Positions 10,429 to 24,435 of a DNA stretch of 46,486 bases are shown here, one piece after another (within the stretch, counting starts at the first letter, position 1; each line of letters begins with the position of its first letter). Made by a program: the position numbers and the translations under genes. The notes beneath the pieces were generated by a model, which searched no databases, had not been told where the DNA came from, and saw nothing but the letters and a program-made list of their open reading frames with translations. Source of the stretch: a virus. The DNA lies in IMG/VR virus record IMGVR_UViG_3300010265_000001, one strand, 5' to 3'.

Positions 10429-11770
10429 TCTTAATTTTATAACGACAGACTCGCAGGAAATCCACGCGACGATCATTGGCGAGCTGGAAAACGGCGTGGC
10501 TGAGCCGTTATACCCCGGGGACGAGCGTCGCCTGTTCGGGGAGGCTCTCGTCCCTCTTTTTGTGGCCATGTATAACGCCGTCAATGACGCAGCTCGTCAA
10601 AAAATGCTCAGATATGCCCGGGGCCCTGTCCTCGATGCACTGGGCGAACGCTCCGGCGTAACAAGGCAAGAGCCGGTACCGGCAACCACGACGCTGCGCT
10701 TCTCGATGAACGCGCCAGTCGAGTGGAATGTGATCATCCCAGCCGGCACCAGAGTCACCAATGACAATGTCAGGTACTTCGCGACAGACACCACGGCCGT
10801 CATTATGGCCGGAGCGACTTCCGTGACAGTACAGGCAACCAGTACGGAAGGCGGCACAATATACAACGACATCAAGATCGGCGACATCAACGTCATCGTC
10901 GACCTGATCCCGTATGTGGATAGTGTGGAAAACATAACAACCACCGCCGGGGGCAGCGACGAGGAAAGCGACGACAGTCTCCGGGAAAGGATCCGAAACG
11001 CGCCTTCCAAATTATCGACAGCCGGGCCAGTAAACGCCTACAAATACTGGGCTAAATCCGCAGACCCAACGATCTCCGACGTGGTCGTACAGAACGAAAA
11101 AGAAACCATCTCTCGGATGCTCCCCGTCTCTGCCGGCAAGGCATATAAAGGCGGCAGCAACCTACTGCCCGACACCCTGAAGGTGTATGCATCCGGAAGC
11201 TCTACGCCGGCCGCAGCCGGAACGGACTATACTGCAACATACGAGGACGAGCTGCTCACCATTACGATGAAACCGGGCGGCGCCCTTGAGTCTGCTGAGG
11301 AAATCGGCATCGAAATCGACCGGACAATGGACGGCCGGGTGAAGATCGTGCCGATCTGCTACGGTGGAGTTATACCGAGCCAAGGCATCCTCGACAAGGT
11401 GCTCGCTGCGTGCAGCGCTGACGACGTCAGGCCGCTCACCGACCATGTGATCGTCGAAGCTCCAAGCGTCCACTATTATGACATTGAGCTCAAATACTAC
11501 ACGACGGCCGCGGACGAAAGCAGGGCCATCGAGACCATTGAGGGCCCCGGTGGAGCTATTGACCAGTATATCTACTGGCAAGACTCGGCACTGGATCGCG
11601 ACATCAACCCCGACAAGCTGCGCGCCCTGATCCTCGCCCCTTCATGGGCCAGCGATCTGGTCGGTGCGGTTCGCGTGGACATCATCAAGCCGACATTTAC
11701 AGAACTATCAGAGACGACCGTGGCCAAACACAGCGGATCGCTCGTTGTCTCTCACGAGGTGGTGGTATGA
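10421..11770 (+). CDS. Baseplate J-like protein
   Basis: 449 aa starting MPDLNFITTDSQEI...AEPLYPGDERRLFGEAL, typical of Baseplate_J. RBS aaggaggga. Confidence 0.8.
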   Translation: MPDLNFITTDSQEIHATIIGELENGVAEPLYPGDERRLFGEALVPLFVAMYNAVNDAARQKMLRYARGPVLDALGERSGVTRQEPVPATTTLRFSMNAPVEWNVIIPAGTRVTNDNVRYFATDTTAVIMAGATSVTVQATSTEGGTIYNDIKIGDINVIVDLIPYVDSVENITTTAGGSDEESDDSLRERIRNAPSKLSTAGPVNAYKYWAKSADPTISDVVVQNEKETISRMLPVSAGKAYKGGSNLLPDTLKVYASGSSTPAAAGTDYTATYEDELLTITMKPGGALESAEEIGIEIDRTMDGRVKIVPICYGGVIPSQGILDKVLAACSADDVRPLTDHVIVEAPSVHYYDIELKYYTTAADESRAIETIEGPGGAIDQYIYWQDSALDRDINPDKLRALILAPSWASDLVGAVRVDIIKPTFTELSETTVAKHSGSLVVSHEVVV

Positions 11771-12573
11771 TGCGGCTATCAGATGCAGACATCCGGAAGC
11801 TGATCCCGATATTCATGCGGGATGATGCAGCCGTCGAGGCTCTGGCCAAAGCGGTCAATAAACTAATCACGGAACCCGGCAGCAAGGTCAAGCAGCTGCG
11901 GACATGGGATAAGATCGACGAGCTTGACGATGCGGAACTTGACGAGCTGGCGTGGGAGCTAAATGTCGACTGGTACAGCTCGGCCCTTCCTCTGGATCGA
12001 AAGCGCGAAACGATCAAAGTCTCGGATCTGGTTCACTCAAAGCGCGGTACCAAGCGAGCCGTTGAGCAGCTGGTCAGCGCTTACTTCGGCAGCGGTTACG
12101 TTCAGGAGTGGTTTGATGCAGTGTACCCCTTCGAGGCAGCTCCTTACCACTTCATCGTCCTGACATCAAACAAGGACATGACGGACGAAATATTTCAAGA
12201 GTTCCGCAGGATCGCCACCGAAGCCAAAAGTGCCCGCTCTATACTTGACGGCATTTTCTACTATGAGGAGTGCGGTGCTGTCATCATAGCAGCCAGAACG
12301 GTGGAGCCTACGGTTTTTAATTTTCCTAAGTGCGGGACAAGACACAAGCCCGCATATCTCGGAAAAATCATAGAGAGAGCCGCAGAAGCCAGCCGTGTGA
12401 TAACCAGCACAGCCTTCAACTTCAGTAAGGCCGGCACAACAAAGGCAGGGCTCAACCATAAGCCGGCTGTGATCGGGAAAGTTATGGAAGCCGCAGCTGC
12501 CACCGCTGGCGCATCCATAACGAAGCAGGCGTTCAACTTCATAAAATGCGGCACTCGCAAAACAATGCAGTAA
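11767..12573 (+). CDS. Tail protein I-like (P2 gpI family) with a C-terminal triple repeat
   Basis: 268 aa, ATGATG overlap with the J-like gene. LIPIFMRDD...ELDELAWELNVDWY is typical of phage tail protein I. The C-terminus has 3 FNFxKxGT repeats. Confidence 0.7.
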   Translation: MMRLSDADIRKLIPIFMRDDAAVEALAKAVNKLITEPGSKVKQLRTWDKIDELDDAELDELAWELNVDWYSSALPLDRKRETIKVSDLVHSKRGTKRAVEQLVSAYFGSGYVQEWFDAVYPFEAAPYHFIVLTSNKDMTDEIFQEFRRIATEAKSARSILDGIFYYEECGAVIIAARTVEPTVFNFPKCGTRHKPAYLGKIIERAAEASRVITSTAFNFSKAGTTKAGLNHKPAVIGKVMEAAAATAGASITKQAFNFIKCGTRKTMQ

Positions 12574-13324: not shown

Positions 13325-13495
13325 ATGGCTAACGTCATAATCAAGACAGACGAACAAAGGGCCCATGAGGCCATGATCCTGAAAAGCTACGGGGTAAACC
13401 CTGAGAGAGCAACTGCTGAGCAGCGGGAATGCGCAAGAGAAATCTCAAGGCATACCGCTGAAATAAAAAAAGAAATGGAGGCTAACAGAATATGA
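13325..13495 (+). CDS. Small hypothetical protein (56 aa, below the ORF-track cutoff)
   Basis: Translated by hand as MANVIIKTDEQRAHEAMILKSYGVNPERATAEQRECAREISRHTAEIKKEMEANRI. It starts immediately after the upstream stop codon (no gap) and shares an ATGA overlap with the downstream gene. Confidence 0.45.
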   Translation: MANVIIKTDEQRAHEAMILKSYGVNPERATAEQRECAREISRHTAEIKKEMEANRI

Positions 13496-13788
13496 TTATT
13501 AGAGAACAGAACGAAGGCCCGAAAATCCCCTACACGGTGGACGGCAACAGGATCACGTTCGGAGACGACGAGATCACCCTCAACCTCATAAAGTACGAGA
13601 GGGACGAGGCTCAGACTATCGACATATGCAGGGATGACGATAAGATCCTGATCGCTGGCCCTTCAAAGTATTTTGTAGCAAATATCAACATCCCGGCCAG
13701 ACAGTACGAAGATCCGGAGAAAACCATCCCCATCCCCTTCTCGATGGACAACGTCGAGCTCGTTTTGTGGGCTCTTGTGGAGGTGTAA
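13492..13788 (+). CDS. Hypothetical protein upstream of the DGR target
   Basis: 98-aa ORF, translationally coupled. Confidence 0.5.
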   Translation: MIIREQNEGPKIPYTVDGNRITFGDDEITLNLIKYERDEAQTIDICRDDDKILIAGPSKYFVANINIPARQYEDPEKTIPIPFSMDNVELVLWALVEV

Positions 13789-13791
13789 ATC

Positions 13792-14880
13792 ATGGCTATA
13801 ACAAACAGAGACTTTGATGTCGCCGTTCGCCTGCTGAGCGGCGGCACAAATGAAGCGATTTACAACGACGTCGGCCTCCCGTCCATCATGGTGAGGAAGG
13901 ATAAAAAGCAGATCTCCGAAGTCATAGCCGGAGGCAGCGCAAGCACTCACCCGGCCTTTATAGTGGACGGCGTCGAGGTTCCTTCCTTCTACATCAGCAA
14001 GTTCCAAAATGTAGTATATAAAGGCAGAGCCTACTCTCTGCCTATGCAGGATCCCGGAAACTCCATAAACTTCGACAACGCAAAGGCAGCCTGCGAGGCG
14101 AATGGCCCGGGCTTCCACCTTCCGACTATTGCCGAATATGCCTTTATTGCACAGGAGGCAAGGAACCGCGGAACGATGCCGAGGGGCAACAACAACTACG
14201 GCAAAGATCACTCGGCCCCATGGGAAACGGGTATACCGACATATATCGACGGCGAAGGAAGAGTTTGCAGAGTGGCCACAGGTTCCGGCCCAGTCTCATG
14301 GTCAGATAACTGGCAAGAAGATGGCATATGGGACTTGAATGGCAACGTCCACGAGTGGCAAGGTGGATACAGGACGGTCGACGGGGAAATCCAGATCATA
14401 CCCGACAACAATGCAGCCATGCAGATAAACCAAAACCCTGATAGCACGTTCTGGAAGGCAATTATGCCGGACGGTTCACTGGTGGCTCCGGGTACACCCG
14501 GGACACTAAAATGGGACTACTTAAACCCGGTGCCAGTAGGAGGAACGGGAGAGTATGCCTTCAGGCTGAACACGGTAATCGCAAACCCGGCAGACAATGA
14601 GACGGCATATGGATCAGTCTTGTTTCACGCCTTAACAGCAGCCGACGGCGTAAATGTTCCGGAGCTCCTAAAAGTCCTCTGTCTATTCCCTAACGAGCCG
14701 GGCGGCGACTATGGAAACGACAGGCTATATATGAGGAACATCGGAGAGCGGCTCGCGGCTCGTGGCGGCCGCTGGTCCAGCGCGTCGAGCGCTGGTGTGT
14801 TCTGCACGGGCGGCAACGCCCCTCGGTCGCACGTCGGCGCGTACATCGGCTTCCGCTCCGCTTACATTCCGGGGATCTGA
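13792..14880 (+). CDS. DGR target protein 1: FGE/C-type-lectin-fold putative receptor-binding protein with C-terminal VR1
   Basis: 362 aa. The C-terminus ...ERLAARGGRWSSASSAGVFCTGGNAPRSHVGAYIGFRSAYIPGI has the FGE-sulfatase-type CLec signature. Its last roughly 117 nt match the TR. Confidence 0.9.
   Translation: MAITNRDFDVAVRLLSGGTNEAIYNDVGLPSIMVRKDKKQISEVIAGGSASTHPAFIVDGVEVPSFYISKFQNVVYKGRAYSLPMQDPGNSINFDNAKAACEANGPGFHLPTIAEYAFIAQEARNRGTMPRGNNNYGKDHSAPWETGIPTYIDGEGRVCRVATGSGPVSWSDNWQEDGIWDLNGNVHEWQGGYRTVDGEIQIIPDNNAAMQINQNPDSTFWKAIMPDGSLVAPGTPGTLKWDYLNPVPVGGTGEYAFRLNTVIANPADNETAYGSVLFHALTAADGVNVPELLKVLCLFPNEPGGDYGNDRLYMRNIGERLAARGGRWSSASSAGVFCTGGNAPRSHVGAYIGFRSAYIPGI
14746..14862 (+). repeat. 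DGR variable region VR1
   Basis: Hand alignment of 117 nt to TR 15322-15438 gives 16 differences. 14 are at TR adenines and 2 at TR thymines. Confidence 0.9.
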
Positions 14881-14911
14881 GATCTGCCAATCTGAAAATC
14901 TGACAAGGGCG
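14863..14911 (+). promoter_or_regulatory. Conserved 3' flank of VR1 with four phased ATCTG repeats (candidate DGR target-recognition element)
   Basis: tacattccggggATCTGagATCTGccaATCTGaaaATCTGacaaggg aligns with the flank of VR2 (24370-24418) and has the same 7/8/8-nt spacing. The TR has no such flank. Confidence 0.6.
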
Positions 14912-14931
14912 TCCCGCCAAAGGACGCCCTT
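14905..14931 (+). other. GC-rich hairpin downstream of VR1 (DGR-associated stem-loop and/or weak terminator)
   Basis: aagggcgtcc / ggacgccctt forms a perfect 10-bp stem with a 7-nt loop. No strong T-tract follows. Confidence 0.6.
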
Positions 14932-14950
14932 CCATATTTGAGGTGAACAC

Positions 14951-15292
14951 ATGGCCGATTTTATACTACAACAGCGAATAAACCGCATGATCCTGAAATC
15001 GACGCCCCGCATCATGAACATGAAGAAGCCCGAGAAGTTCGTCCTCGGCGCTGCGATCCGGGAAAGCGAATACAAGATCCTGCGGCTTACTATACTCGGG
15101 AACAAGACAAGAGACAGCAAAAGACCGTACCAGATGGAGATCGACGCAGAGCTCGAAGTTCTACGGGCCTATATTGATATAGCAGTCGCACCAGAGGCAC
15201 GGCTTATTTCCACGGGTGTGCATGAGGAATGGTCGAAGGAAATCAACGAGATCGGCCGCCTCCTCGGCAAGTGGATAAAATCCACTAAATAG
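14951..15292 (+). CDS. avd: DGR accessory variability determinant (Avd, four-helix-bundle protein)
   Basis: 113 aa, basic and helical, located between the target gene and the TR as in the BPP-1 mtd-avd-TR-brt layout. Confidence 0.8.
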   Translation: MADFILQQRINRMILKSTPRIMNMKKPEKFVLGAAIRESEYKILRLTILGNKTRDSKRPYQMEIDAELEVLRAYIDIAVAPEARLISTGVHEEWSKEINEIGRLLGKWIKSTK

Positions 15293-15321
15293 CACCTGCG
15301 GGGGATGCGCCGAATAAAATC

Positions 15322-15438
15322 GAGCGGCTCGCGTATCGTGGCGGCAACTGGAACAACACGTCGAACGCTGGTGTGTTCTACATGAACGGCAACAACCCTC
15401 GGTCGAACGTCGGCGCGTACATCGGCTTCCGCTCCGCT
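15322..15438 (+). repeat. DGR template repeat (TR)
   Basis: A non-coding copy of the VRs. It is rich in AAC codons in the VR frame: 8 AAC and 23 adenines by hand count. Confidence 0.9.
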
Positions 15439-15648
15439 CTGGCCTGAATGTTAGAAGCCTGTCGCTCAAGGGCGAAGGACAACGCCAAGGCCAAAGGGGC
15501 GCATCTCCCTACCTCCTGAGTAAACAGGGGGCAAAAGATTAAATTGCCATGAAGGCAGGCGCGCCGGGAGACCGGACTCGGAAGCTACCAACCCAAAAGC
15601 AGCCTCCGGGTATTGCCACGCATGGCGTCAATATTGTGAGGGAGACAG
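15439..15648 (+). ncRNA. DGR RNA spacer region between the TR and the RT (part of the TR-containing template/primer RNA)
   Basis: A 210-nt non-coding gap with several short hairpins. Its position corresponds to the Sp region of characterised DGRs. Confidence 0.55.
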
Positions 15649-16764
15649 ATGGCAAAAATATCAAACATTTACAAGGACATTTACAGCTGGGACAACCTCT
15701 ACAACGCGTACAGAGAGGCAGCTCGCGGCAAATGGTTCAGGGATGACGTGGCGCGCTTTACGGCTCACCTCGATGAAAACCTGATCCAGCTCCAAAACGA
15801 GCTCATGTGGCACACCTACAAGGTCGGCCGGTACCGCGAGTTCTATGTCTACGAGCCTAAAAAGCGCCTGATCATGGCGCTGCAATTCAGGGATCGCGTC
15901 GTGCAGTGGGCTATATACCGGCAAATCAACCACCTATTTGATAAGCAATTCATTTATGACTCTTACGGCTGCCGGGAAGGCAAGGGAACCCACCGAGCAG
16001 CTGACCGCCTTCAATACTGGATGCGGGCAGTCGACAGAAAGCCGAGTGAATGGTATTACCTGAAGCTCGACATCAGCAAATATTTTTACCGTGTAGATCA
16101 CCGGACACTCATGGACATCCTGCGCCGGAAAATTGACGACGAGGATCTCCTCTGGCTGCTCGGTACGATCATTAACTGCGAGCATACGGCCTTCGGCCTG
16201 CCGCTGGGCCTGAGCCCTGACCAATGCGACAAGGCTGACCGACTCATGGAGGTCGGGATGCCGATCGGCAACCTGACGAGCCAACTGTTCGCAAATATCT
16301 ACCTCAACGAGCTCGATCAATTCGCAAAGCACGAGCTCCGGCTCCGTTATTACATCAGGTACATGGATGACGTGATCATCCTGCACCAAGACAAGAAATA
16401 TCTGCACGAGGTAAAGGACAGGATCGAGGTATTCCTCAACGAGGAGCTCAGGCTCCACCTGAACAACAAGACGGCCATCCGGAAAGTGAAGTCCGGGATC
16501 GAGTTCGTTGGCTTCAGGATATTTCCGACGCATCGGAAGTACAAGAAGAAATCCCTGCGCAAACTCATGAGCCGGCTGAAATATGTGGCCAAAGAGTACG
16601 CAGCGGGACGCATGAGTCTCGAGAAGGTCAACGCCACAGTCCAGTCCTATTATGGAGCTATGCAGCACTTCAACAGCTACGGCCTGCGCCGTAAATTGTC
16701 ACAAACGGTGGTGTTCAAGAGAACGACACCAGAAATGGAGGGATCCGACGATGCACAGAACTGA
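15649..16764 (+). CDS. DGR reverse transcriptase
   Basis: 371 aa. It has the YMDD box (YIRYMDDVIIL) and the DGR-type motif PIGNLTSQLFANIYLNELD (SQ in place of the group II intron QG). Confidence 0.92.
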   Translation: MAKISNIYKDIYSWDNLYNAYREAARGKWFRDDVARFTAHLDENLIQLQNELMWHTYKVGRYREFYVYEPKKRLIMALQFRDRVVQWAIYRQINHLFDKQFIYDSYGCREGKGTHRAADRLQYWMRAVDRKPSEWYYLKLDISKYFYRVDHRTLMDILRRKIDDEDLLWLLGTIINCEHTAFGLPLGLSPDQCDKADRLMEVGMPIGNLTSQLFANIYLNELDQFAKHELRLRYYIRYMDDVIILHQDKKYLHEVKDRIEVFLNEELRLHLNNKTAIRKVKSGIEFVGFRIFPTHRKYKKKSLRKLMSRLKYVAKEYAAGRMSLEKVNATVQSYYGAMQHFNSYGLRRKLSQTVVFKRTTPEMEGSDDAQN

Positions 16765-16779
16765 AGGAGGTGGCAGCCT

Positions 16780-17130
16780 ATGGCCGACATAAGCACAGTC
16801 ATCGCGGTCGTGGGCTGCGCTCTATCTCTCGCCGGCTTCTGGATAGGCCGAGCGACAGCTCACAGAACCGAGGGAAAGGAGGCCGGCAGTCTGGCGACTG
16901 ACCTGAAATACATCAAGGAGAGCGTCGAACGTATCGAGACACGCCTGAACGATGACGTCAAGCGTCTCGAGGGCAGGATCGACGAGCTCAGCAACCAGCT
17001 TGTCACTATTGCAGGCACAGCGGCCAAGGGCTACGAGTCCGCAAAGATGGAGCACAACCGGCTCAACGAACACCTCGAAAGAGACCACGGGCAAACCGTT
17101 GTCAGGGCACGAAACTCATTAAACGAGTAA
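16780..17130 (+). CDS. Membrane-anchored coiled-coil protein (lysis-cassette accessory, function unknown)
   Basis: 116 aa with an N-terminal TM helix (ISTVIAVVGCALSLAGFWIG) followed by a coiled coil. Confidence 0.5.
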   Translation: MADISTVIAVVGCALSLAGFWIGRATAHRTEGKEAGSLATDLKYIKESVERIETRLNDDVKRLEGRIDELSNQLVTIAGTAAKGYESAKMEHNRLNEHLERDHGQTVVRARNSLNE

Positions 17131-17146
17131 AAGGAGGGAAACGAGA

Positions 17147-17458
17147 ATGATCGACATTACCCCAGTAATCAACGCGGTGATCGCTATCATCGCAGCGGTG
17201 ATCACGGCTTTTTTGGTGCCGTGGATCAAGAGCAAGACCACGGAGCAGCAGCGCAAAGAGATCGGCGCATGGGTGAAGATCGCAGTCGCAGCAGCCGAGC
17301 AGCTCTATAAGGGTGCGGGCCGTGGCGCAGAGAAAAAGGCTTACGTCATTGAGTTCCTGAAGAAAAACGGCTTCACTGTCGACACAGAGGCCATCGACGC
17401 CATGATCGAAGCAGCCGTCCAGCAGCTCAACAGCGAGATCGGCCTTATTATCGAATAA
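17147..17458 (+). CDS. Holin, LL-H family-like
   Basis: 103 aa. An N-terminal TM (VINAVIAIIAAVITAFLVPWI) is followed by a helical tail, KKAYVIEFLKKNGFTVDTEAIDAMIEAAV, typical of Holin_LLH. Confidence 0.7.
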   Translation: MIDITPVINAVIAIIAAVITAFLVPWIKSKTTEQQRKEIGAWVKIAVAAAEQLYKGAGRGAEKKAYVIEFLKKNGFTVDTEAIDAMIEAAVQQLNSEIGLIIE

Positions 17459-17472
17459 CGGAGGCGAACAGC

Positions 17473-17781
17473 ATGAGCAGGAAGCGTAAAAGCTCAAGAA
17501 AAAAGAAGATCGAGTTCTCCAAGGTCATATTCGTCGGCATATCTACGGTCACCATATCGGTGGCCGTTTTTGCTTGCGTTATGATCTGGAGAACCGGTGA
17601 TCTCTCCCCTCTGGCCTACCTGATCCCCTCTGTCTTTGCAGAGCTGGCGACAGCCACCGGCTTCTATTACCGGAAGGCACAGAAGGAAAATGAGATCAAG
17701 CTGCCCCAGTATTTAGCAGGACAGCAAGAAGATCCAGAAGCTACGACTGGAGAACTCCAGAACGAAACCTTCAGCGGATAG
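17473..17781 (+). CDS. Small two-TM membrane protein (second holin or antiholin candidate)
   Basis: 102 aa with a basic N-terminus and two hydrophobic helices, located between the holin and the endolysin. Confidence 0.5.
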   Translation: MSRKRKSSRKKKIEFSKVIFVGISTVTISVAVFACVMIWRTGDLSPLAYLIPSVFAELATATGFYYRKAQKENEIKLPQYLAGQQEDPEATTGELQNETFSG

Positions 17782-17793
17782 GAGGAAAACGTC

Positions 17794-19368
17794 ATGAAAA
17801 TATGTATTGACCCCGGGCACGGGCAGTATGGGAACCCGGGCGTGACAAAACCATACTACGAAGGGACGCAAATGTTCAAACTCGCCCAGCTGCAAAAGGC
17901 TGAGCTTGAGAAGTACGAGAACACAACCGTCGTCATCACCAGAAAGAAGATCACAGACGATCCAAGCCTCGCAGCAAGGGGCCAGATGGCCGCTGGCTTC
18001 GATCTGTTCCTGAGTGACCACAGCAACGCACCCGGAGACGGTGCCGCAAATTATAACGCCATCACCGGGACGACCGTGCTGGACTCAGTAACAAGACCCA
18101 ATAAGACGCTGGCCACCGCCCTCGGCGAAACCGTGGCCAAGGTCATGGGCCACCACTTCAGGGGCATCACATACAAGAAAAACGACTCCGGAACCGACTG
18201 GTATGGAGTCTTGAGAAGTGCCATAGCAGCAGGCTGCAAGAGCGCGCTCCTGATCGAGCACGGCTTCCACACCAACCCAAAGGACTGCGGCTTTTTGCTT
18301 CAGGATGCAAACCTTGAGAAATTGGCAAAGGCTGAGGTAGACGTCATCGCTGCGCACTATGGCCTAAAACTCAAAGGATCCACAAAGCAGCCAGAGGCTC
18401 CGACAGCTGGCAGTCATCCGATCGTGGGAAAGGCTACGGCCACCGCAGCACAGGCCAAGACATGGGCCAAGAACAACGGAGCGACCTCTTTATTCATTGA
18501 GCTGGCCGACACCTTCTGGAGGATCGCACAGGCCGCCGGCGTCAATCCGGTCGTCGCATATGCACAGAGCGCCAAAGAAACCGGGTACGGACATTTCAAG
18601 GGCGTGCTGGATGCCAGCTTTATGAACCCATGCGGCCTCAAGACAACGGCCGGCGGTGCGAACAATGACCCGAACGCTCACAAGCGCTTCAGTTCATGGG
18701 AGGAAGGCATCACCGCACAGGTCGATCACCTCGCACTATACGCAGGGGCTCCGGGCTATCCTAAAGCAGGAACTCCGGATCCTCGTCATTTCCCATACCT
18801 GAAGGGTACAGCTCCAACCGTGGAGCAACTCGGAGGCAAATGGGCCCCGGCTTCTACCTATGGCACCGACATCGTGGCCATGATGGCCAAGCTGGAAGCA
18901 ACCAAGGCAGCGACAGCTCCGGAGCCTGCTGTCATGTACTACGTCCAGACCGGCGCATATTCCAACAAGACCAACGCCGACGCACAATATCACAAGGTTA
19001 AGGCTGCCGGCTTCGATGCCATCATCAAGCAGTCGGGCAATCTTTACAGAGTGCAGGTCGGAGCCTTCAGCGTGAAGGCAAACGCCGACGCCTATGCTGC
19101 CAAGCTGAAAGCGGCCGGCTTCGACACATATGTCACAACAACCGGCGGCACTCAGGTGGCTGCTGGATCCGCGCCGGCACCGGCCAAGAAGATCGAGGTC
19201 GGCAGCAAGGTCAAGATCAAGAACAGTGCCACCAATTACAGTACCGGCCAGAAGATCCCCGACTGGGTGAAGGCCAATACCTACACCGTGCAGCAGCTCG
19301 GAACAGGCAAGGCCCTCCTGAAGGAGATCGTCAGCTGGGTGAATACTTCAGACCTGACGCTCGTCTAA
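17794..19368 (+). CDS. Multidomain endolysin: N-acetylmuramoyl-L-alanine amidase, glucosaminidase-like domain, two SPOR repeats and a C-terminal binding domain
   Basis: MKICIDPGHG (Amidase_3 start), YAQSAKETGYGHF (glucosaminidase-like), YYVQTGAYSNKTNAD.../YRVQVGAFSVKANAD (SPOR), and a C-terminus homologous to 9941-10114. Confidence 0.85.
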   Translation: MKICIDPGHGQYGNPGVTKPYYEGTQMFKLAQLQKAELEKYENTTVVITRKKITDDPSLAARGQMAAGFDLFLSDHSNAPGDGAANYNAITGTTVLDSVTRPNKTLATALGETVAKVMGHHFRGITYKKNDSGTDWYGVLRSAIAAGCKSALLIEHGFHTNPKDCGFLLQDANLEKLAKAEVDVIAAHYGLKLKGSTKQPEAPTAGSHPIVGKATATAAQAKTWAKNNGATSLFIELADTFWRIAQAAGVNPVVAYAQSAKETGYGHFKGVLDASFMNPCGLKTTAGGANNDPNAHKRFSSWEEGITAQVDHLALYAGAPGYPKAGTPDPRHFPYLKGTAPTVEQLGGKWAPASTYGTDIVAMMAKLEATKAATAPEPAVMYYVQTGAYSNKTNADAQYHKVKAAGFDAIIKQSGNLYRVQVGAFSVKANADAYAAKLKAAGFDTYVTTTGGTQVAAGSAPAPAKKIEVGSKVKIKNSATNYSTGQKIPDWVKANTYTVQQLGTGKALLKEIVSWVNTSDLTLV

Positions 19369-19382
19369 TAACAACACAGAAA

Positions 19383-19422
19383 AACCCGCTCTCCGGATGT
19401 CCTCCGAAGGGCGGGCTTTTTA
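19383..19422. terminator. Bidirectional terminator between the convergent endolysin and integrase genes
   Basis: aaaacccgc...gcgggcttttt forms an extended imperfect dyad, A-rich on one side and T-rich on the other. Confidence 0.7.
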
Positions 19423-19435
19423 TATCGCGCCAACT

Positions 19436-21001
19436 CTATGCTGCCGGCAGCTTCATAACTAACACGAACACTGACTCCAAGACATAGATCTGCGTGTTCG
19501 AGTACGCGTTCTTTGGTGGAGCAAAGGACGCCAAAGTCGAACACTCTGGAGCCCCAGATTTATCGCAGTTTTCAACGATCGACCTCGTGACTGTACTCTG
19601 CGGCCCGGTGTAATTATATGCGATCCTGATCTCGTCATCGTACAGGTAGACAGCATTGACAAAAGCGTCGATGACTGTCCTCTGGTAGTCCTCGTCTGTA
19701 TAGTCACCGCCCCGGAACTTCTCAAGCCAGAAAATGACCTGATCCCTCTCGATGCGCGGCTTCTTTATTTGCTCTCTGGATATTCCAACAATGAGATCAT
19801 CCCTCTGAGCTTCCAACTCCATGAGTCTCTCCTTCGTGGTCGGAGTGATGATCCCCTGCTCGATGGCTGCCATAATATTCCGGATGGCCCTCTCTGTCTC
19901 TTTAAGCTGTTGCTCCATAGCATAGAGGACGGTATTCGTCAGCTCGCGCTCCTGAAGGGCCATAACAGCGTCGGCGATCTTCTCGATGACGTCATCCTGA
20001 AGAACCTGCTGCACAGTCTCGCGGACAACCAGCTCCTCGATCCACTTCTTTTTTACCGCCTTCTTATCGCATACGCGGCGGCGCTTGTTATTATTGCATT
20101 TATAGTAATAGTATACCGTGCCATGCCTGCCGGTGCCGCTCTCTCCGATCATGTTACCGCCACACCTGCCGCAGAACAGCTTCGTCGTCAGCAGGTAGTC
20201 CACTTCAGTCCGGGCCATGGCCGGGGCTTTTTTTGTTTTCTCTATCATGGCTTGAACCTCCTCAAAGAGCGCCCGGTCAATAATAGCAGGCACACCGCCC
20301 TCGATGCGGATGTCGCGGTATTGATAGACGCCGATATACTTCTCATTTCTAAGCATTTTCCTGAGACTGTTCTTGTTGAATGGATTGCCTCTGGAAGTCT
20401 TGAGCCCTCTCTCGTTCATTAAGTTTATGATCTGCGTGACATTCATGCCGCTGGCATAAAGCTCGAAAATCTCCTTGACGATCGGAGCGGTGGCGGGATC
20501 TATCTCGAAGCGCTGATCAGCTCCGACTCTATAACCGAGGGCTATGCCGCCGCCGTTCACTTTACACTTGAGAGCATTATCCTCCAGTCCTCCGATGATG
20601 TCCTGCCTCAAGTTCTCGGAATAATATTCAGCATACCCCTCAAGCATTGACTCGAGGAGGATGCCTTCAGGGCCGTCCGGGATCGTCTCCTTTGCATAGA
20701 CAACCCGGACGCCGTTCTTTTTAAGTCTCGCCTTATACATGGCCGCATCGTATCGGTTACGAGCGAACCTGTTCACCTTATAGGTGATCACAACCTGAAA
20801 CTTCCCCTTTGCGCTGTCTCTGATCATGCGCTGGAAGTCTGGCCTCTTGTCTGTCTTTCCAGTGAGAGCTCTGTCACAGTATTCCCCGATGACAAGCATC
20901 CCATTGCGCTCGGCAAACTCGTGGCACTCGCGCAGCTGTACCTCGATCGACTCCTCGCGCTGATTATGTGATGAATAACGTGCATATATGACAGCCTTCA
21001 C
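19436..21001 (-). CDS. int: Large serine recombinase (phage integrase)
   Basis: 521 aa. Resolvase-type N-terminus MKAVIYARYSS with the catalytic Ser context, a recombinase domain, and a zinc ribbon CGRCGG...YYYKC. GTG start after aaaggaggtg. Confidence 0.9.
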   Translation of the reverse strand: MKAVIYARYSSHNQREESIEVQLRECHEFAERNGMLVIGEYCDRALTGKTDKRPDFQRMIRDSAKGKFQVVITYKVNRFARNRYDAAMYKARLKKNGVRVVYAKETIPDGPEGILLESMLEGYAEYYSENLRQDIIGGLEDNALKCKVNGGGIALGYRVGADQRFEIDPATAPIVKEIFELYASGMNVTQIINLMNERGLKTSRGNPFNKNSLRKMLRNEKYIGVYQYRDIRIEGGVPAIIDRALFEEVQAMIEKTKKAPAMARTEVDYLLTTKLFCGRCGGNMIGESGTGRHGTVYYYYKCNNNKRRRVCDKKAVKKKWIEELVVRETVQQVLQDDVIEKIADAVMALQERELTNTVLYAMEQQLKETERAIRNIMAAIEQGIITPTTKERLMELEAQRDDLIVGISREQIKKPRIERDQVIFWLEKFRGGDYTDEDYQRTVIDAFVNAVYLYDDEIRIAYNYTGPQSTVTRSIVENCDKSGAPECSTLASFAPPKNAYSNTQIYVLESVFVLVMKLPAA

Positions 21002-21014
21002 GGTGCCACCTCCT

Positions 21015-21470
21015 TTACTTCTTTATTGGCAGTTTTTGAGCATCCCAAAACCAACCGAGGGCGATGGTTATTATGTCAGCGATCCAGCCTATGCCGAACA
21101 CACCAGCGGAAAGCGCCCACAGTAGTCCAGTTCCTTTTTTACCTACATAGAACCGATGGACGCCGAAATAACCGAGGAATATGCAGAGCAGCAGCGTGAC
21201 CGTCTTGCTTTTTGGCGACACGGCTGCCGGATCCCTCTCTATGTATTGATCAGACATATGGCCATCGTCTCCGGATGTCTGCCGGGAGCTGCTGGATGAT
21301 GAATAAGAAATACCAGATCCCGGGATGCCGACGGTCGTCGTCCTTCTCCCGGTGGTGCTGATCGTGTGCTTCAACCCTCTCGGGCCGAATGATACACTTG
21401 CGCTCTTTGCGTTAAGATTAAGCCTAACGCCGGGTAAAATCTTCATGCTTTTTCTGAACCTGAAACCCAT
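21015..21470 (-). CDS. DUF4236-like plus TM2-domain membrane protein (lysogeny-operon cargo)
   Basis: MGFRFRKSMKILPGVRLNLN (DUF4236-like N-terminus) and C-terminal LLLCIFLGYFGVHRFYVGK...GIGWIADI (TM2 domain). The start was chosen at the Met preceded by ggaaaggag. Confidence 0.65.
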   Translation of the reverse strand: MGFRFRKSMKILPGVRLNLNAKSASVSFGPRGLKHTISTTGRRTTTVGIPGSGISYSSSSSSRQTSGDDGHMSDQYIERDPAAVSPKSKTVTLLLCIFLGYFGVHRFYVGKKGTGLLWALSAGVFGIGWIADIITIALGWFWDAQKLPIKK

Positions 21471-21554
21471 ATTTTGATACACTCCTTTCCCTCCCATGCG
21501 GGAGGCTTTTTTATTTTGAAGAACCGGGCGGCTTGCATGTGAAATCATAATAAA

Positions 21555-21920
21555 TTATATTACCGACTCGTTTTTTGACGCCCCTTTATAAGCAAGGAGA
21601 ACGGCCTTAGCGGCTGCCCTTCCTTCGGGCATCGCATCACGCCATAACCTTATAAGCTCCGACTCCTCGGCCGATAAACCGGCAATACGAGCGGGCACTT
21701 CCTCTATTTTTTGAACAACGGGCCTGCCATATAGCTCCTCGACAGTCACACCAAAGTATTCAGCTATCGCCAGAACCTTATCCACACCAATCCGCATTTC
21801 GTCGACATTCCCGTTGATGATGCTGTCCATCGTTGAATAGCTGATCCCGATGGATGACGCCAACGTGCCCAGCTTCATGCCGCGCTCGTTAAGCAGTTTT
21901 TTTACGTTTTCTTTGAACAT
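21555..21920 (-). CDS. CI-like repressor (XRE-family HTH)
   Basis: MFKENVKKLLNERGMKLGTLASSIGISYSTMDSIING is an HTH_3-type motif. The gene is divergent from the Cro-like gene. RBS aaggaggtg. Confidence 0.8.
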   Translation of the reverse strand: MFKENVKKLLNERGMKLGTLASSIGISYSTMDSIINGNVDEMRIGVDKVLAIAEYFGVTVEELYGRPVVQKIEEVPARIAGLSAEESELIRLWRDAMPEGRAAAKAVLLAYKGASKNESVI

Positions 21921-21943
21921 TCCAGCACCTCCTTGCTTGTTCA

Positions 21944-21972
21944 ATTTTAACATTAAGCGAGCTCTTATTCAA
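21944..21972 (-). promoter_or_regulatory. Leftward (repressor) promoter candidate
   Basis: On the minus strand: TTGAAT, 17 nt, TAAAAT. Confidence 0.5.
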
Positions 21973-21979
21973 GAATTAT

Positions 21980-21995
21980 TTCCGATATATCGGAA
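21980..21995. promoter_or_regulatory. Operator O1, perfect 16-bp palindrome TTCCGATATATCGGAA
   Basis: Read directly. It is one of three related sites in the repressor/cro intergenic region. Confidence 0.75.
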
Positions 21996-22012
21996 TTAAT
22001 TCAAAAAAGAGC

Positions 22013-22041
22013 TTGTTTTTTTTCCGACATATCGTTATAAT
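22013..22041 (+). promoter_or_regulatory. Rightward early promoter candidate
   Basis: TTGTTT, 17 nt, TATAAT. The spacer and -10 overlap operator O2. Confidence 0.55.
22022..22037. promoter_or_regulatory. Operator O2 (TTCCGACATATCGTTA, right half degenerate)
   Basis: Matches the O1/O3 consensus in 13 of 16 positions and overlaps the -10 of the rightward promoter. Confidence 0.6.
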
Positions 22042-22051
22042 TTTAGATAAG

Positions 22052-22067
22052 TTCCGATGTATCGGAA
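22052..22067. promoter_or_regulatory. Operator O3 (TTCCGATGTATCGGAA)
   Basis: Near-perfect palindrome lying between the rightward promoter and the Cro-like RBS. Confidence 0.7.
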
Positions 22068-22095
22068 GAATAAAAACCAAGAAAGGAGTAAGAAA

Positions 22096-22332
22096 ATGGC
22101 ATATCCTAATTTGATCGCTGAGATGAAACGTCAAGGTATTACACCAAAAGCCATCGCGGAGGTGGTGAACAAATCACCCGACACGATCAACAACTGGCTC
22201 AAAGGAAAGGGCGAGTTCCCGATCGGCAAAGCCTTCGCAGTGCAAGAGAAGTTTTTCCCCACTCTCCCGATCTCTTACTTATTCAGCCAGAAGCCCATCA
22301 CCCCGCCGGTCACTGAGAAGCCGGCAGTCTAA
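22096..22332 (+). CDS. Cro-like/early HTH regulator
   Basis: 78 aa. MAYPNLIAEMKRQGITPKAIAEVVNKSPDTINNWLKGK is an HTH. It is the first gene of the rightward operon. RBS aaaggag. Confidence 0.7.
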   Translation: MAYPNLIAEMKRQGITPKAIAEVVNKSPDTINNWLKGKGEFPIGKAFAVQEKFFPTLPISYLFSQKPITPPVTEKPAV

Positions 22333-22354
22333 AAAACACGAAAGGAGCAAACCC

Positions 22355-23080
22355 ATGAAAAAGCAGTTTTTCATCAATGAAACACCAGTCAGCCGCGTGA
22401 CCTTCCAATGGACTGTCTGGAGTGAAAAAGGCGACGGCGGCAACTGGCTGGAGACCGAGGAACTCACACCTCGCAAACTCAAGAACCGCATGGCCAACGG
22501 CGTGAAGTATGAGGACATCAGGATCGCGACCATCGGCTTCGAGCCGGTCGATTATGTCGAGTTTTCTGCTGACTTCAAGGACGACGGGGCCCACTTATAC
22601 ACCAACGAGCTGACATCTGAGCAGATCCAAGCAGCTGAGAACGAGTACACCCAATGGGAAAAGGAATACGAGGCAAAGAGAACCAAAGAGGCCGAGCTGC
22701 TGGCCACCGTGACCGAGGAGCTTCCGGACATGGATCAGGATCAGAGCAGGGCCCTCGCCTCTGCCATGGCATCCATTGAACCGGACGCAGATCCCGAGTG
22801 GGCGAAAGAGTTCATCGCCTCAATGAAGCGTGCAGCTGAGATACTGGCCGAGATCTTTCGGAAGGTGATCGAGACAGTCAAGCAGCTCACCGAGTCGCTG
22901 GCCAAAACATTCATGCAAAACAAGGACAAGTTCATGGATGCGGCTATGCTCGCAGCTTCTCATCCTCCGAAGTGGTGGCACCTTTACAAACACGCCAAGA
23001 AGGCCCGAGTCCGCAAGAAGTACAGGCGCAAACTCATGGACAATCTGCTGGCAACCTTACAGGCTGCCGGGGCAATATGA
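22355..23080 (+). CDS. Hypothetical early protein
   Basis: 241-aa ORF, RBS aaaggag. Acidic centre, basic C-terminus, no motif recognised. Confidence 0.5.
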   Translation: MKKQFFINETPVSRVTFQWTVWSEKGDGGNWLETEELTPRKLKNRMANGVKYEDIRIATIGFEPVDYVEFSADFKDDGAHLYTNELTSEQIQAAENEYTQWEKEYEAKRTKEAELLATVTEELPDMDQDQSRALASAMASIEPDADPEWAKEFIASMKRAAEILAEIFRKVIETVKQLTESLAKTFMQNKDKFMDAAMLAASHPPKWWHLYKHAKKARVRKKYRRKLMDNLLATLQAAGAI

Positions 23081-23271
23081 AGGCCCGATGCGTGGGATGC
23101 GGAAAGACGTGGAACGTGAGCATCTTCGCGCGGATACCAAAAACCGGCTATATATGCCCCCACTGCTATTCAAAGCGAAAGGAGGCGCAACGATGCACCA
23201 ATACATATGCGAGCACTGCAACGCACACCTCGATCCGGGCGAGCGCTGCGACTGCCAAAAAGTCGAGATAA
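23078..23271 (+). CDS. Small zinc-ribbon protein (CxxC...CxxC)
   Basis: MKARCVGCGKTWNVSIFARIPKTGYICPHCYSKRK..., ATGA-coupled to the previous gene. Its 3' part overlaps the next ORF, so the true end is uncertain. Confidence 0.4.
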
Positions 23272-23417
23272 TACCAGACAAGATCCCGGAAACCGTAACC
23301 GATAGACTGGCCCGCCCGCTGATCGACATCGTGGCCAAAGCGTTCGAGGATCCGAAAGTCGTCAAGGAGTACGGACGCTGGAAAAAGGAGCGCCAAGAAA
23401 AACTTGCGGCCCACTGA
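23193..23417 (+). CDS. Small Cys-rich protein (CxxC...CxC)
   Basis: MHQYICEHCNAHLDPGERCDCQK... RBS aaaggagg lies 6 nt upstream. Confidence 0.55.
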   Translation: MHQYICEHCNAHLDPGERCDCQKVEIIPDKIPETVTDRLARPLIDIVAKAFEDPKVVKEYGRWKKERQEKLAAH

Positions 23418-23445
23418 GCCGCAAATACGAAAGGAGCAAAAAATT

Positions 23446-24435
23446 ATGAAAAACGAACTTATTTTTGACAATGCTGGAATACCGAGCATCATGGTCACAA
23501 TCCCGAAATTCAAGCTCTCGGAGGTAATCGACGGAGCGCCCGACATCACTCACCCTGCCTTCATCGTGAACGGCAAAGAAGTCGACGAAATCAGTATTTC
23601 CAAGTATCAGAACGTTGTCATCAATGGCAAAGCGTACAGCCTACCGCTTCAGGAGCCTGCCGTGAACATCGACTTCGACAACGCGATCTCAGTCTGCGAA
23701 GCCAAGGGCCCGGGCTGGCACCTTATGACGAACGCCGAATGGGCTGCGATCGCTCTCTGGAGCAAGAAGAACGGCACCCTTCCTCACGGAAATACCAGCT
23801 GCGGCAAATACCACGCAGACAACTCAGAACGCGGGATCCTGTTCGATAACGTCAGGACACTCACCGGCAGCGGGCCAAAGACATGGACACACGACCACAC
23901 CGAGCTCGGCATCCACGACCTGAACGGCAACATTCTCGAATGGGTTGGCGGCGTTCGCTGGGTAGACGGCGAGCTCCAGATCATCCCGGACAACAATGCC
24001 GCAGCAGGGGCAGATCAGACAGCTGAGAGCAAGGACTGGACGCCAGTCATGACACCGGACGGATCCGTCAAGTACAAAGTAACAGAGGATGCCATCACAT
24101 TGACCACCGAGCAGCCCGAGCAATACTGGGACGGCTTCAGGTTTAACGACCTTCAGAGCGAGATCGAAGCGCCTGACATCGTGAAGGCACTGGCTCTTTA
24201 TCCGGCAGACGACGAACAGGTCGACGGATATTTCTGGCTCGATACCGAAGGGGAGCGGCTCGCGTCTCGTGGCGGCGCCTGGTACGGCACGTCGAACGCT
24301 GGTGTGTTCTGCATGGGCGGCGACTACCCTCGGTCGTACGTCCACACGTACATCGGCTTCCGCTCCGCTTATATTCGTCCTTCTGCAATCTGTCAATCTG
24401 ACAATCTGGACAAGGATGGTGGCCGCGATGAATAG
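23446..24435 (+). CDS. DGR target protein 2: paralogue of 13792-14880 with C-terminal VR2, located in the early region
   Basis: 329 aa, alignable to target 1 over its full length (IPSIMV, THPAFIV, KAYSLP, FDNA..CEA.GPG.HL, NGN..EW.GG.R.VDGE.QIIPDNNAA). The C-terminus ERLASRGGAWYGTSNAGVFCMGGDYPRSYVHTYIGFRSAYI matches the TR. ATG 23446 follows aaaggag. Confidence 0.88.
   Translation: MKNELIFDNAGIPSIMVTIPKFKLSEVIDGAPDITHPAFIVNGKEVDEISISKYQNVVINGKAYSLPLQEPAVNIDFDNAISVCEAKGPGWHLMTNAEWAAIALWSKKNGTLPHGNTSCGKYHADNSERGILFDNVRTLTGSGPKTWTHDHTELGIHDLNGNILEWVGGVRWVDGELQIIPDNNAAAGADQTAESKDWTPVMTPDGSVKYKVTEDAITLTTEQPEQYWDGFRFNDLQSEIEAPDIVKALALYPADDEQVDGYFWLDTEGERLASRGGAWYGTSNAGVFCMGGDYPRSYVHTYIGFRSAYIRPSAICQSDNLDKDGGRDE
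24253..24369 (+). repeat. DGR variable region VR2 (remote, about 8.8 kb downstream of the TR)
   Basis: Hand alignment of 117 nt to the TR gives 15 differences. 12 are at TR adenines and 3 at TR guanines (24343-24346). Confidence 0.85.
24370..24418 (+). promoter_or_regulatory. Conserved 3' flank of VR2 with phased (A/T)TCTG repeats, here inside coding sequence
   Basis: tatattcgtccTTCTGcaATCTGtcaATCTGacaATCTGgacaagga. The spacing (7/8/8) and terminal acaagg match the VR1 flank. Confidence 0.6.

Follow-up and report, generated by a model that had tools for sequence, protein, structure and literature searches.

A two-target diversity-generating retroelement in a contractile-tailed phage, with a phased CTG array after each variable repeat

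The window, a stretch of 46,486 nucleotides of viral DNA (IMG/VR record IMGVR_UViG_3300010265_000001), very probably carries a canonical and functional diversity-generating retroelement (DGR) in a temperate phage with a contractile tail, a distant relative of Faecalibacterium phage Lagaffe. Target gene 1, avd, the template repeat (TR), the spacer and the reverse transcriptase (RT) gene follow one another in this order, all on the + strand, and a second target is encoded in the early operon. DGRs of this family have been catalogued in very large numbers, so the element itself is ordinary; its two-target layout has already been published for Lagaffe and the element is a further example of a well-known system. 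Its value is its clarity, with a strikingly regular recipient-side array beside each rewritten site.

Organization of the element

A first-pass annotation of the sequence had placed a complete DGR at 13792-16764, and we found each of the proposed parts where it had been located, all on the same strand. Its variable repeat, VR1, was borne out; a second one (VR2, 24253-24369) is left out of it, although the label 'VR1' hints that another had been noticed. The annotation had also assigned the phage a contractile tail, in agreement with the sheath, tape measure and gpJ/gpI genes that we identified; the integrase here is a large serine recombinase. The ORFs of the DGR are all intact, and none of the catalytic motifs is missing. 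The features are as follows.

13792..14880, + strand: target gene 1, encoding a TaqVP-type C-type-lectin/FGE-fold variable protein of 362 aa, at the distal end of the tail module
14746..14862, + strand: VR1, encoding residues 319-357 of 362 in target 1
14831..14862, + strand: G+C-rich 3' end of VR1, with no mismatch to the TR; IMH/IMH*-like common part
14875..14902, + strand: phased array after VR1, four (A/G)ATCTG units with a 7-8 nt period, mostly in the 3' UTR
14905..14931, + strand: candidate GC-rich hairpin/cruciform, 10-bp stem and 7-nt loop CGCCAAA
14951..15292, + strand: avd, accessory variability determinant, 113 aa, with NCBIfam, Pfam and PHROG matches
15322..15438, + strand: TR, 117 nt, with 23 A and 8 AAC codons in the VR frame
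15439..15648, + strand: DGR RNA spacer, 210 nt, with a covarying P1 helix and an invariant AAAGGG
15649..16764, + strand: DGR reverse transcriptase, 371 aa, with IGNLTSQ and YMDD
23446..24435, + strand: target gene 2, in the early operon, encoding a 329-aa paralogue with 44% identity to target 1
24253..24369, + strand: VR2, the remote variable repeat, with 15 mismatches to the TR
24381..24408, + strand: phased array after VR2, TTCTG and then three ATCTG units, inside the coding sequence and with no hairpin after it

Adenine-directed differences between the template and variable repeats

A repeat search recovered VR1 and the TR as an ungapped 117-nt pair with 86% identity. The two differ at 16 positions, 14 of which are TR adenines and two TR thymines (15334 T>G and 15383 T>C). 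The mismatches in the computed alignment are thus adenine-biased, as the first-pass reading of a DGR demands (hypergeometric p=1.8e-10, given 23 A in 117 nt), and its hand counts of 23 adenines and eight AAC codons in the TR proved correct on recount. Each of the 23 TR adenines occupies codon position 1 or 2, and adenine mutagenesis of the TR frame cannot reach a stop codon; up to 15 codons can be recoded, a capacity of ~10^13.5 protein variants. No TR/VR mismatch lies beyond TR index 84, and the G+C-rich 3' block is invariant across the relatives compared. VR2 has the same bias, with 12 of its 15 mismatches at TR adenines (p=5.9e-8); the remaining three are at TR G positions where close relatives have an adenine in the TR. 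In nearly all of ~150 related loci, the mismatches of the TR/VR pairs are almost exclusively of the A type.

The TR of the window has 23 adenines compared with 27 in close relatives, four having been lost. Substitutions among the TRs of close relatives are themselves enriched at adenines (21 of 55, against an expected 21%; p=0.003), with unbiased controls. We do not claim TR self-mutagenesis from this enrichment, as relaxed selection at TR adenines, with the scaffold encoded by the non-A sites, is a simpler account; gene conversion from VR to TR or mosaic assembly could also be its source.

Recent activity of the element

Differences confined to the VRs among assembled sequences support recent DGR activity. 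A public 5.6-kb contig (L002) matches window positions 13433-19060 (5,628 nt) except for 17 differences, every one of them in VR1: 12 at current TR-A sites, three at ancestral TR-A sites and two at T. A relative with 93% identity (L173) differs from the window at 19 positions of VR2, all 19 being current or ancestral TR-A sites, and at none of the 90 non-A sites; the flanking gene is 11% diverged. The sample behind the contig may be that of the window or a related one, and hypervariable regions can be assembled as mosaics in metagenomes.

The adenines missing from the TR (27 reduced to 23), the retention in VR2 of bases from an older TR and the lack of read-level activity of Lagaffe_CP in culture (PMC11792537) would also fit a fossil DGR, in which the parts are still recognizable, homing has been lost and the TR/VR differences are relics. 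We regard such a fossil as very unlikely, given the intact ORFs and catalytic motifs and the identity of L002 and the window over 5.6 kb save for the changes within VR1. VR1 of the window also carries the new TR bases G, G, G and T at TR indices 90, 91, 93 and 96, so information passed between the TR and VR1 after the TR had changed.

Avd and the reverse transcriptase

The gene described in the first-pass annotation as Avd-like and 113 aa long has that length, and its product is identified as Avd by NCBIfam NF033474 (DivGenRetAVD; 82.3 bits against an equivalog cut-off of 80), by Pfam bAvd PF22296 (71.2 bits against a cut-off of 40) and by a PHROG named 'Avd protein of DGR'. The YMDD and LTSQLFAN motifs reported for the RT are present in its translation, and IGNLTSQ fits the (I/V/L)GxxxSQ signature of RT domain 4 in DGR RTs (PMC3521204). 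Compared with solved structures, the RT scored best with the 328-aa RT chain of 8ub7 (175.7 bits), the best group II RT scoring 81.7 bits. From its 328-aa length, we take the 8ub7 chain to be the Bordetella phage DGR RT; a literature search for the entry code retrieved no paper confirming its identity. The RT is 36% identical to that of Bordetella phage BIP-1 over 78% of its length (E 2e-46), matches the RTs of other DGR phages as well, and has hits to Pfam RVT_1 (86 bits) and phrog_1423 (E 2.9e-151). The signature motif and the match scores support placing it with the DGR RTs.

The best-named NCBIfam match of the RT is a group II intron RT/maturase (133 bits), and such genes frequently bear the label 'retron-type' in GenBank, as would be expected of an RT from another retroelement (group II intron, retron or defence RT) lying beside a coincidental repeat pair. 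The NCBIfam match is misleading, as that collection has no DGR RT model, and 133 bits is far under the cut-off of 300 for the group II model TIGR04416. The retron St85 model reached 44 bits against a cut-off of 235, Drt2-5 and AbiA were likewise far below theirs, and an Rfam scan of 13500-25000 at E<=1, covering the known intron and retron RNAs, matched no group II intron or retron RNA and no other family. With the SQ motif, the Avd gene, the adenine-specific repeats and the 8ub7 match all indicating a DGR, we give an origin from another retroelement practically no credence. The expectation that the RT would fall outside the group II intron and retron clades is therefore upheld by the scores with solved structures and by NCBIfam scores below the cut-offs.

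The two target proteins

Target 1 matched Pfam FGE-sulfatase at 19.8 bits, below the gathering score of 23.3, and for that reason its fold assignment needed a PDB search and a structure model. Its sequence matched 5vf4 (TaqVP) at E 7e-59 and phrog_2889 at E 3.5e-120. The AF2 model has a pLDDT of 91 and TaqVP as its best Foldseek match (TM 0.89), followed by TvpA, EgtB/FGE and Mtd; the C-type-lectin/FGE fold suggested by the first-pass annotation for the gene ending in VR1 thus agrees with the structure model. Target 2 matched target 1 in BLASTP (E 2e-89) and Pfam FGE-sulfatase above the cut-off (32.4 bits), and its final codons overlap the start of an exonuclease gene at 24428. In Tepidibacillus prophage L083, no VR2 was found within 10 kb of the RT, indicating that the second target is not universal, even in close relatives.

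The position and homology of target 1 make it a plausible receptor-binding protein. As the first-pass annotation had noted, no long fibre gene follows the gpI-like gene, there being no ORF of more than 135 aa before the target. That the second target is encoded outside the structural module makes the receptor-binding reading less straightforward. The DGR could be real and its diversified proteins not bind host receptors, target 1 being, for example, an accessory adhesin for environmental or mucus ligands and target 2 a non-virion early protein. This would suit target 2, which lacks the first ~19 residues of target 1 and lies in the early operon, overlapping the DnaQ-like exonuclease gene near DUF932, Gam and Erf genes; TaqVP, moreover, is a monomer of unknown ligand, and Hoc-like decoration proteins are diversified by other phage DGRs. 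We nevertheless think it rather unlikely, as target 1 comes after gpJ/gpI and four small ORFs, in the fibre slot of P2-like phages, and the homologous slot of ACA2 and VP58.5 (gpJ, gpI, fibre-attachment protein and DGR target) is annotated as antireceptor. The fold of target 1 is also common to Mtd, a proven receptor-binding protein.

Phased arrays on the recipient side

Since the TR and the VRs are the same up to the end of their homology, a recipient-specific signal must lie downstream of it. Each VR of the window is followed there by a phased array, whose general form is about four WAA(A/T)CTG units every 7-8 nt, beginning ~12 nt past the end of TR/VR homology. Within the window the phased pattern occurs only after VR1 and VR2 (0 expected by chance), and the stop codon of target 1 falls within the first unit of the VR1 array. 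Among 114 non-redundant relatives, 90 have the array after their VRs and none has it after the TR (0/114) or on the antisense strand (0/114); it occurred in 0.6% of random 70-mers. The array is common to proximal and remote VRs, in relatives down to ~30% RT identity. We found no description of a phased array in the searchable DGR literature.

We tentatively propose, with somewhat less than even confidence, that the array is a sequence-specific IMH core that marks the recipient DNA across a large DGR branch and is recognized either by the RT-Avd-RNA-cDNA complex or a host factor. The branch may include Bacillota prophages, VHML-like vibriophages and Mushu-/nd4-type elements, with the array reduced in BPP-1; the array here looks like an expanded form of the 21-bp element of the BPP-1 IMH. 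The link to homing is drawn from sequence, and the array might instead have nothing to do with target recognition, being a signal of the 3' UTR, of translation or of transcription, or a consequence of conserved C-terminal coding. The stop codon in its first unit after VR1 and the sequence past the VR2 array, which also serves the following gene as its ribosome-binding site, would be in keeping with such a role. This too we hold to be rather unlikely, considering that the array follows proximal and remote VRs alike, coding or non-coding, that its period of 7-8 nt is not a multiple of three, and that it is absent after TRs and on the antisense strand and rare in random 70-mers. In BIP-1, furthermore, the five IMH/IMH* mismatches that set the direction of homing destroy the second CCTGA unit in the TR (PMC3240598).

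The array as an RNA-guided site was considered and set aside. Inspection by eye in relatives revealed nothing consistent, either in complementarity of the array to the spacer or the TR 3' end or in covariation of the array type (TCTG/ACTG) with the TR-end TCTG or the spacer hairpin.

The candidate hairpin after VR1 has a DNA fold of -13.9 kcal/mol (z -2.2) and its arms covary among relatives; downstream of VR2 there is no hairpin (fold z = 0.03). The hairpins of more distant relatives include GRNA loops. Enlarging the 4-nt GRNA loop of BPP-1 nearly abolished homing (PMC3240598), and an inverted repeat was present in only 34% of the DGRs surveyed (PMC5758913). The 7-nt loop at VR1 and the missing hairpin at VR2 count against the canonical reading, as do the two non-adenine differences of VR1. 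We rejected a plain terminator for the VR1 hairpin, where a terminator scan made no call and no T-run follows; a T-run does follow the hairpin in some relatives, so a dual role is possible.

According to PMC12875486 (2026), the route of the mutagenised cDNA to and into the VR is still not fully understood. A simple, conserved and mutable motif would offer a direct experimental handle on this step, and the array could help in finding remote DGR targets by computation and in designing engineered ones.

Spacer RNA and proposed mechanism

The spacer is 210 nt long (15439-15648), as first annotated. Its P1 helix pairs 15440-15445 with 15488-15493 and covaries; RNAalifold on 14 relatives gave 27 pairs, 10 of them with compensatory double changes. 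The AAAGGG at 15493-15498 (Sp55-60) is invariant among relatives. The lack of an Rfam match is uninformative on the spacer, because Rfam apparently has no DGR RNA family. Priming from Sp A56 is documented for BPP-1 (PMC6182149), and position Sp56 of the BIP-1 spacer is an A, within GGTCA; by analogy, A15493 is the predicted priming adenosine. A15493 pairs with U15440, so synthesis would start at about C15439, which would be the exact end of TR/VR homology.

By homology to BPP-1, the avd-TR-spacer transcript would fold into a conserved structure, and the RT-Avd complex would prime cDNA from the 2'-OH of a spacer adenosine, the putative A15493. The RT would copy the TR faithfully except opposite adenines, and the mutagenised cDNA would replace VR1 in the tail module and, less often, VR2 in the early-operon paralogue. 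On the ligand-binding face of the TaqVP-type C-type-lectin fold, each replacement could recode as many as 15 codons. The recipient would be told apart from the donor TR by the sequence after the shared G+C-rich end, which on the recipient side may be the roughly four phased WAA(A/T)CTG units, with the GC hairpin added at VR1 only.

Comparison with known systems

TaqVP of Thermus aquaticus (PDB 5VF4) resembles target 1 in full-length homology (36-37% identity) and in having its VR at the extreme C-terminus. It differs in being chromosomal and monomeric, with an unknown ligand, whereas target 1 is encoded in a phage tail module.

The prototype BPP-1/BIP-1 system (mtd-avd-TR-brt) shares with the element its part order, its adenine mutagenesis and a G+C-rich common end, after which come, as candidates here, a recipient-specific element and a GC hairpin; it is also alike in the priming adenosine, ~55-56 nt past the TR and paired just 3' of the initiation site, which for the element is a prediction. 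The IMH-specific element of BPP-1 is 21 bp long, with ~2-3 irregular CTG-type units and partial homology to IMH*, whereas the recipient-specific part here is a regular four-unit array without a TR counterpart. The hairpin loop here is 7 nt and not GRNA, the target is TaqVP-like and not an Mtd trimer, and there is a second, remote target.

The likeness to Faecalibacterium phage FP_Lagaffe (Lagaffevirus), for which two VRs and DGR activity have been published (Cornuault 2018, PMC5883640; PMC11792537), extends to the gene order, which in both is sheath, tape measure, gpJ, gpI, small ORFs, Mtd-like target, Avd, TR, RT and lysis genes. In each of the two phages, the gene of a second FGE-fold target immediately precedes an exonuclease gene, with Gam, Erf and SSB genes after it, and in both a phased CTG array follows each of the two VRs, with a hairpin at the proximal VR and none at the remote one. 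The RTs, however, are only 60% identical, nucleotide identity is 70.7% over 22% of a 7.8-kb query, and Lagaffe has an IS30-type transposase in place of the large serine recombinase. The window finds its nearest genome matches in a Clostridiales MAG and a Tepidibacillus chromosome and not in Faecalibacterium. A related prophage of Tepidibacillus marianensis LSZ-M11000 has a tail module and a DGR like those of the window. Judged on the 7.8-kb query, the phage looks like a member of a genus other than Lagaffevirus, with a synteny that is common to both.

Repeat pair and cassette proteins

A repeat search recovered the same 117-nt repeat pair as the first-pass annotation, with 23 adenines in the RT-adjacent copy, the template repeat (TR), and nine in the other, the variable repeat VR1. 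The adenine bias proposed there was upheld in the computed alignment, where 14 of the 16 TR/VR1 mismatches fall at TR adenines (hypergeometric p 1.8e-10); the other two lie at TR thymines (15334, 15383) that each adjoin adenines. Read in the frame of ORF 13792-14880 (target 1), TR contains eight AAC codons and holds all 23 adenines at codon positions 1 or 2; adenine mutagenesis can create no stop codon and gives access to about 10^13.5 protein variants. The earlier account was right in its hand counts of adenines and AAC codons, in the spacer length of 210 nt and in the motifs of the RT.

Repeats and second target gene in the window
14746-14862 and 15322-15438, + strand: VR1 and TR, direct repeat of 117 nt, ungapped
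24253-24369: VR2, in register with TR, 15 mismatches, 12 of them at adenines
23446-24435: target 2, 329 aa with VR2 at its end, a 44% identical paralogue of target 1

The 113-aa ORF described as Avd-like scored above the cut-off of the NCBIfam equivalog for DGR Avd (82.3 against 80) and also passed that of Pfam bAvd. Among solved structures, the RT best matched the 328-aa RT of entry 8ub7 (175.7 bits), compared to 81.7 bits for the best group II RT. Judging by its length, entry 8ub7 is probably the DGR RT of Bordetella phage, although a paper search did not confirm this. The RT of Bordetella phage BIP-1 matched the window RT directly (36% identity), every NCBIfam group II, retron and Drt model scored far under cut-off, and Rfam found no intron or retron RNA. 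The RT also contains IGNLTSQ, fitting the signature (I/V/L)GxxxSQ, which has been reported as for the most part both necessary and sufficient for association with a DGR (PMC3521204). By these matches it falls with DGR enzymes rather than with those of group II introns or retrons. Target 1 is homologous over its full length to the variable protein of the Thermus aquaticus DGR, TaqVP (5VF4, identity confirmed; PDB sequence search, E 7e-59). Its AF2 model, of high confidence (pLDDT 91, pTM 0.92), superposes on TaqVP with a TM of 0.89, and the next structural matches were TvpA, EgtB/FGE enzymes and Mtd, so the predicted structure agrees with the C-type-lectin/FGE fold first suggested.

A second target and recent activity

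The 3' end of TR was found again at 24340-24369, within VR2. The gene for target 2 belongs to the early operon; its final codons run into the beginning of a DnaQ-like exonuclease gene, after which come DUF932, Gam and Erf genes. Three VR2 mismatches lie at TR G positions where close relatives carry adenines (GTCAACACGAACATC compared to GTCGGCGCGTACATC in the window), and are explained by evolution of TR.

The public viral contig L002 (5,628 nt) is identical to window 13433-19060 except at 17 positions, all inside VR1, that correspond to 12 current TR adenines, three ancestral TR adenines and two TR thymines. In L173, a related locus about 93% identical to the window, every one of the 19 VR2 differences falls where TR has, or ancestrally had, an adenine; the other 90 VR2 sites are unchanged, even though the remainder of the gene is 11% diverged. 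VR1 and VR2 are therefore both real targets, and the identification as a canonical, recently active DGR is correct. The derived TR bases (G, G, G, T) are present in the window VR1 but absent from the L002 VR1 and from the window VR2, indicating that VR1 exchanged information with TR after TR changed and that VR2 has not.

TR itself differs among near-identical relatives at adenine positions only (window 15380, 15412, 15413, 15415 and 15418; TR indices 58, 90, 91, 93 and 96), also in the clusters around loci L011 and L054; the TR of the window and L002 has lost four adenines (27 to 23). Pooled over the close clusters, adenines took 21 of the 55 derived substitutions in TR against 21% expected (p=0.003), and flanking controls were unbiased. 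Relaxed selection at TR adenines, gene conversion from VR to TR, leaky self-homing and mosaic assembly may each account for this pattern.

Phage context

The structural genes run from major capsid protein through tail sheath and tape measure to gpJ-like and gpI-like baseplate proteins, and four small ORFs separate the gpI-like gene from the DGR. An XhlA-like protein, a holin and a multidomain endolysin lie downstream, followed by a divergent large serine recombinase and HTH repressor and then the early genes. This gene content is that of a temperate phage with a contractile tail, bearing out the earlier myovirus call. The reported absence of a long fibre gene also holds, since no ORF between gpI and target 1 exceeds 135 aa. 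The endolysin (17794-19368) has one Amidase_3 and one glucosaminidase domain together with two SPOR domains, and the upstream proteins are XhlA-like (sub-cut-off) and a Holin_LLH holin. Past its Tail_P2_I domain, the gpI-like protein (11644-12573) has in its C-terminal ~80 aa three FNF-x-K-x-GT...KPA copies ~35 residues apart, where the DGR target or the small proteins encoded downstream might dock.

Closest among genomes are a Clostridiales MAG, with an RT identity of 98%, and a chromosome of Tepidibacillus marianensis, with 94% for the RT and 89% nucleotide identity across the tail module; this places the host somewhere in Bacillota, not necessarily in Faecalibacterium. Two closely related loci of this Bacillota-type phage DGR lie on contigs binned as 'Candidatus Nanoarchaeia' (L084, JAQUYS010000047.1; RT 91%) and Alphaproteobacteria (L137), probably through binning contamination rather than as true hosts.

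The nearest cultured relative, Faecalibacterium phage FP_Lagaffe, shares the layout, including the second target beside the exonuclease; its DGR, two VRs and activity are already in print. The architecture is thus one already published for a related phage, and the interest of the DGR itself is modest. The window encodes its large serine recombinase at 19436-21001 (- strand), whereas the syntenic Lagaffe has an IS30-type transposase; these phages are otherwise collinear, and the lysogeny module has been exchanged. In the P2-like phages ACA2 and VP58.5, gpJ, gpI and a fibre-attachment protein precede a DGR target annotated as antireceptor, and by analogy this position supports, short of proof, a receptor-binding role for target 1.

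DGR RNA and hairpin

The spacer is conserved across relatives with 60-98% RT identity, and RNAalifold gave 27 pairs, 10 showing compensatory double changes. A long-range helix (15440-15445/15488-15493) ends at an invariant AAAGGG (Sp55-60). For BPP-1, the 2'-OH of Sp A56 serves as the primer of cDNA synthesis, which begins at TR 117, and TR U118 pairs with Sp A56 (PMC6182149). This A lies within GGTCA in BIP-1, resembling the GGTCA/GGCCA found here. By analogy, A15493 would act as primer and synthesis would start at about C15439, one base past the last TR/VR-homologous base, which would explain the 3' homology boundary.

Cassette-proximal VRs carry, past the array described below, a GC hairpin with covarying arms. 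Its loop is GATA, GGTA, GGCA, GACA or GAAA in most relatives, fitting the GRNA rule (Guo et al.). A 4-nt GRNA loop was shown to be critical in BPP-1, but the window subclade (window 14905-14931; L001 VR1; L083, a Tepidibacillus prophage; L084) has a loop of 7-8 nt, C..CCAA(A), and the element appears active despite it. In this single case VR1, which has the hairpin, appears to have been rewritten more recently than VR2, fitting reports that the stem-loop boosts homing without being strictly required.

A phased array as a proposed recipient mark

Over the final 32 nt TR and VR do not differ, so whatever tells them apart must lie downstream, as Wu et al. foresaw for DGRs of this type. Three to five phased ATCTG units follow VR1, VR2 and both Lagaffe VRs, and none follows TR in either phage; the window contains the pattern nowhere other than after its two VRs. 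In a non-redundant set of 114 VR-downstream sequences, drawn from relatives whose RT identities span 41-100%, 90 carried three or more phased CTG units in the sense orientation (mode four), compared to none of 114 TR-downstream sequences, none of 114 antisense strands and 0.6% of random 70-mers. The unit is W-A-A-(A/T)-CTG-A with a spacing of 7-8 nt, and the first CTG lies ~12 nt beyond the homology end; the base preceding CTG is T, A, or G/C depending on the clade, and some arrays are mixed. Arrays are found in 3' UTRs and within coding sequence with a period that is not a multiple of three, which makes them a signal at the nucleic-acid level. The last unit after VR2 and the ACAAGGA that comes next sit within the C-terminal extension of target 2 (24404-24435), a stretch that also seems to be the RBS source for the exonuclease gene (start 24428, overlapping the target 2 stop codon); three functions apparently share these ~30 nt.

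More distant DGRs with the array include BalMu-1, VP58.5, ACA2 (TTG variant), Mushu and nd4; it was absent from Hankyphage, a crAss-like phage and a Shewanella phage. The DGR papers searched gave no description of the periodicity of this array, although absence there is no proof of novelty. The VR-specific phased array is the single feature that deserves specialist follow-up. In BIP-1, the 21-bp element of the IMH, the recipient-side sequence, is TCTGTGAC CACCTGAT TCTTGAG followed by the GAAA hairpin, and the five mismatches between IMH and its TR-side counterpart IMH* abolish the second CCTGA in TR; on these grounds, the array is best read as the IMH-specific element already known, in an expanded and regular version.
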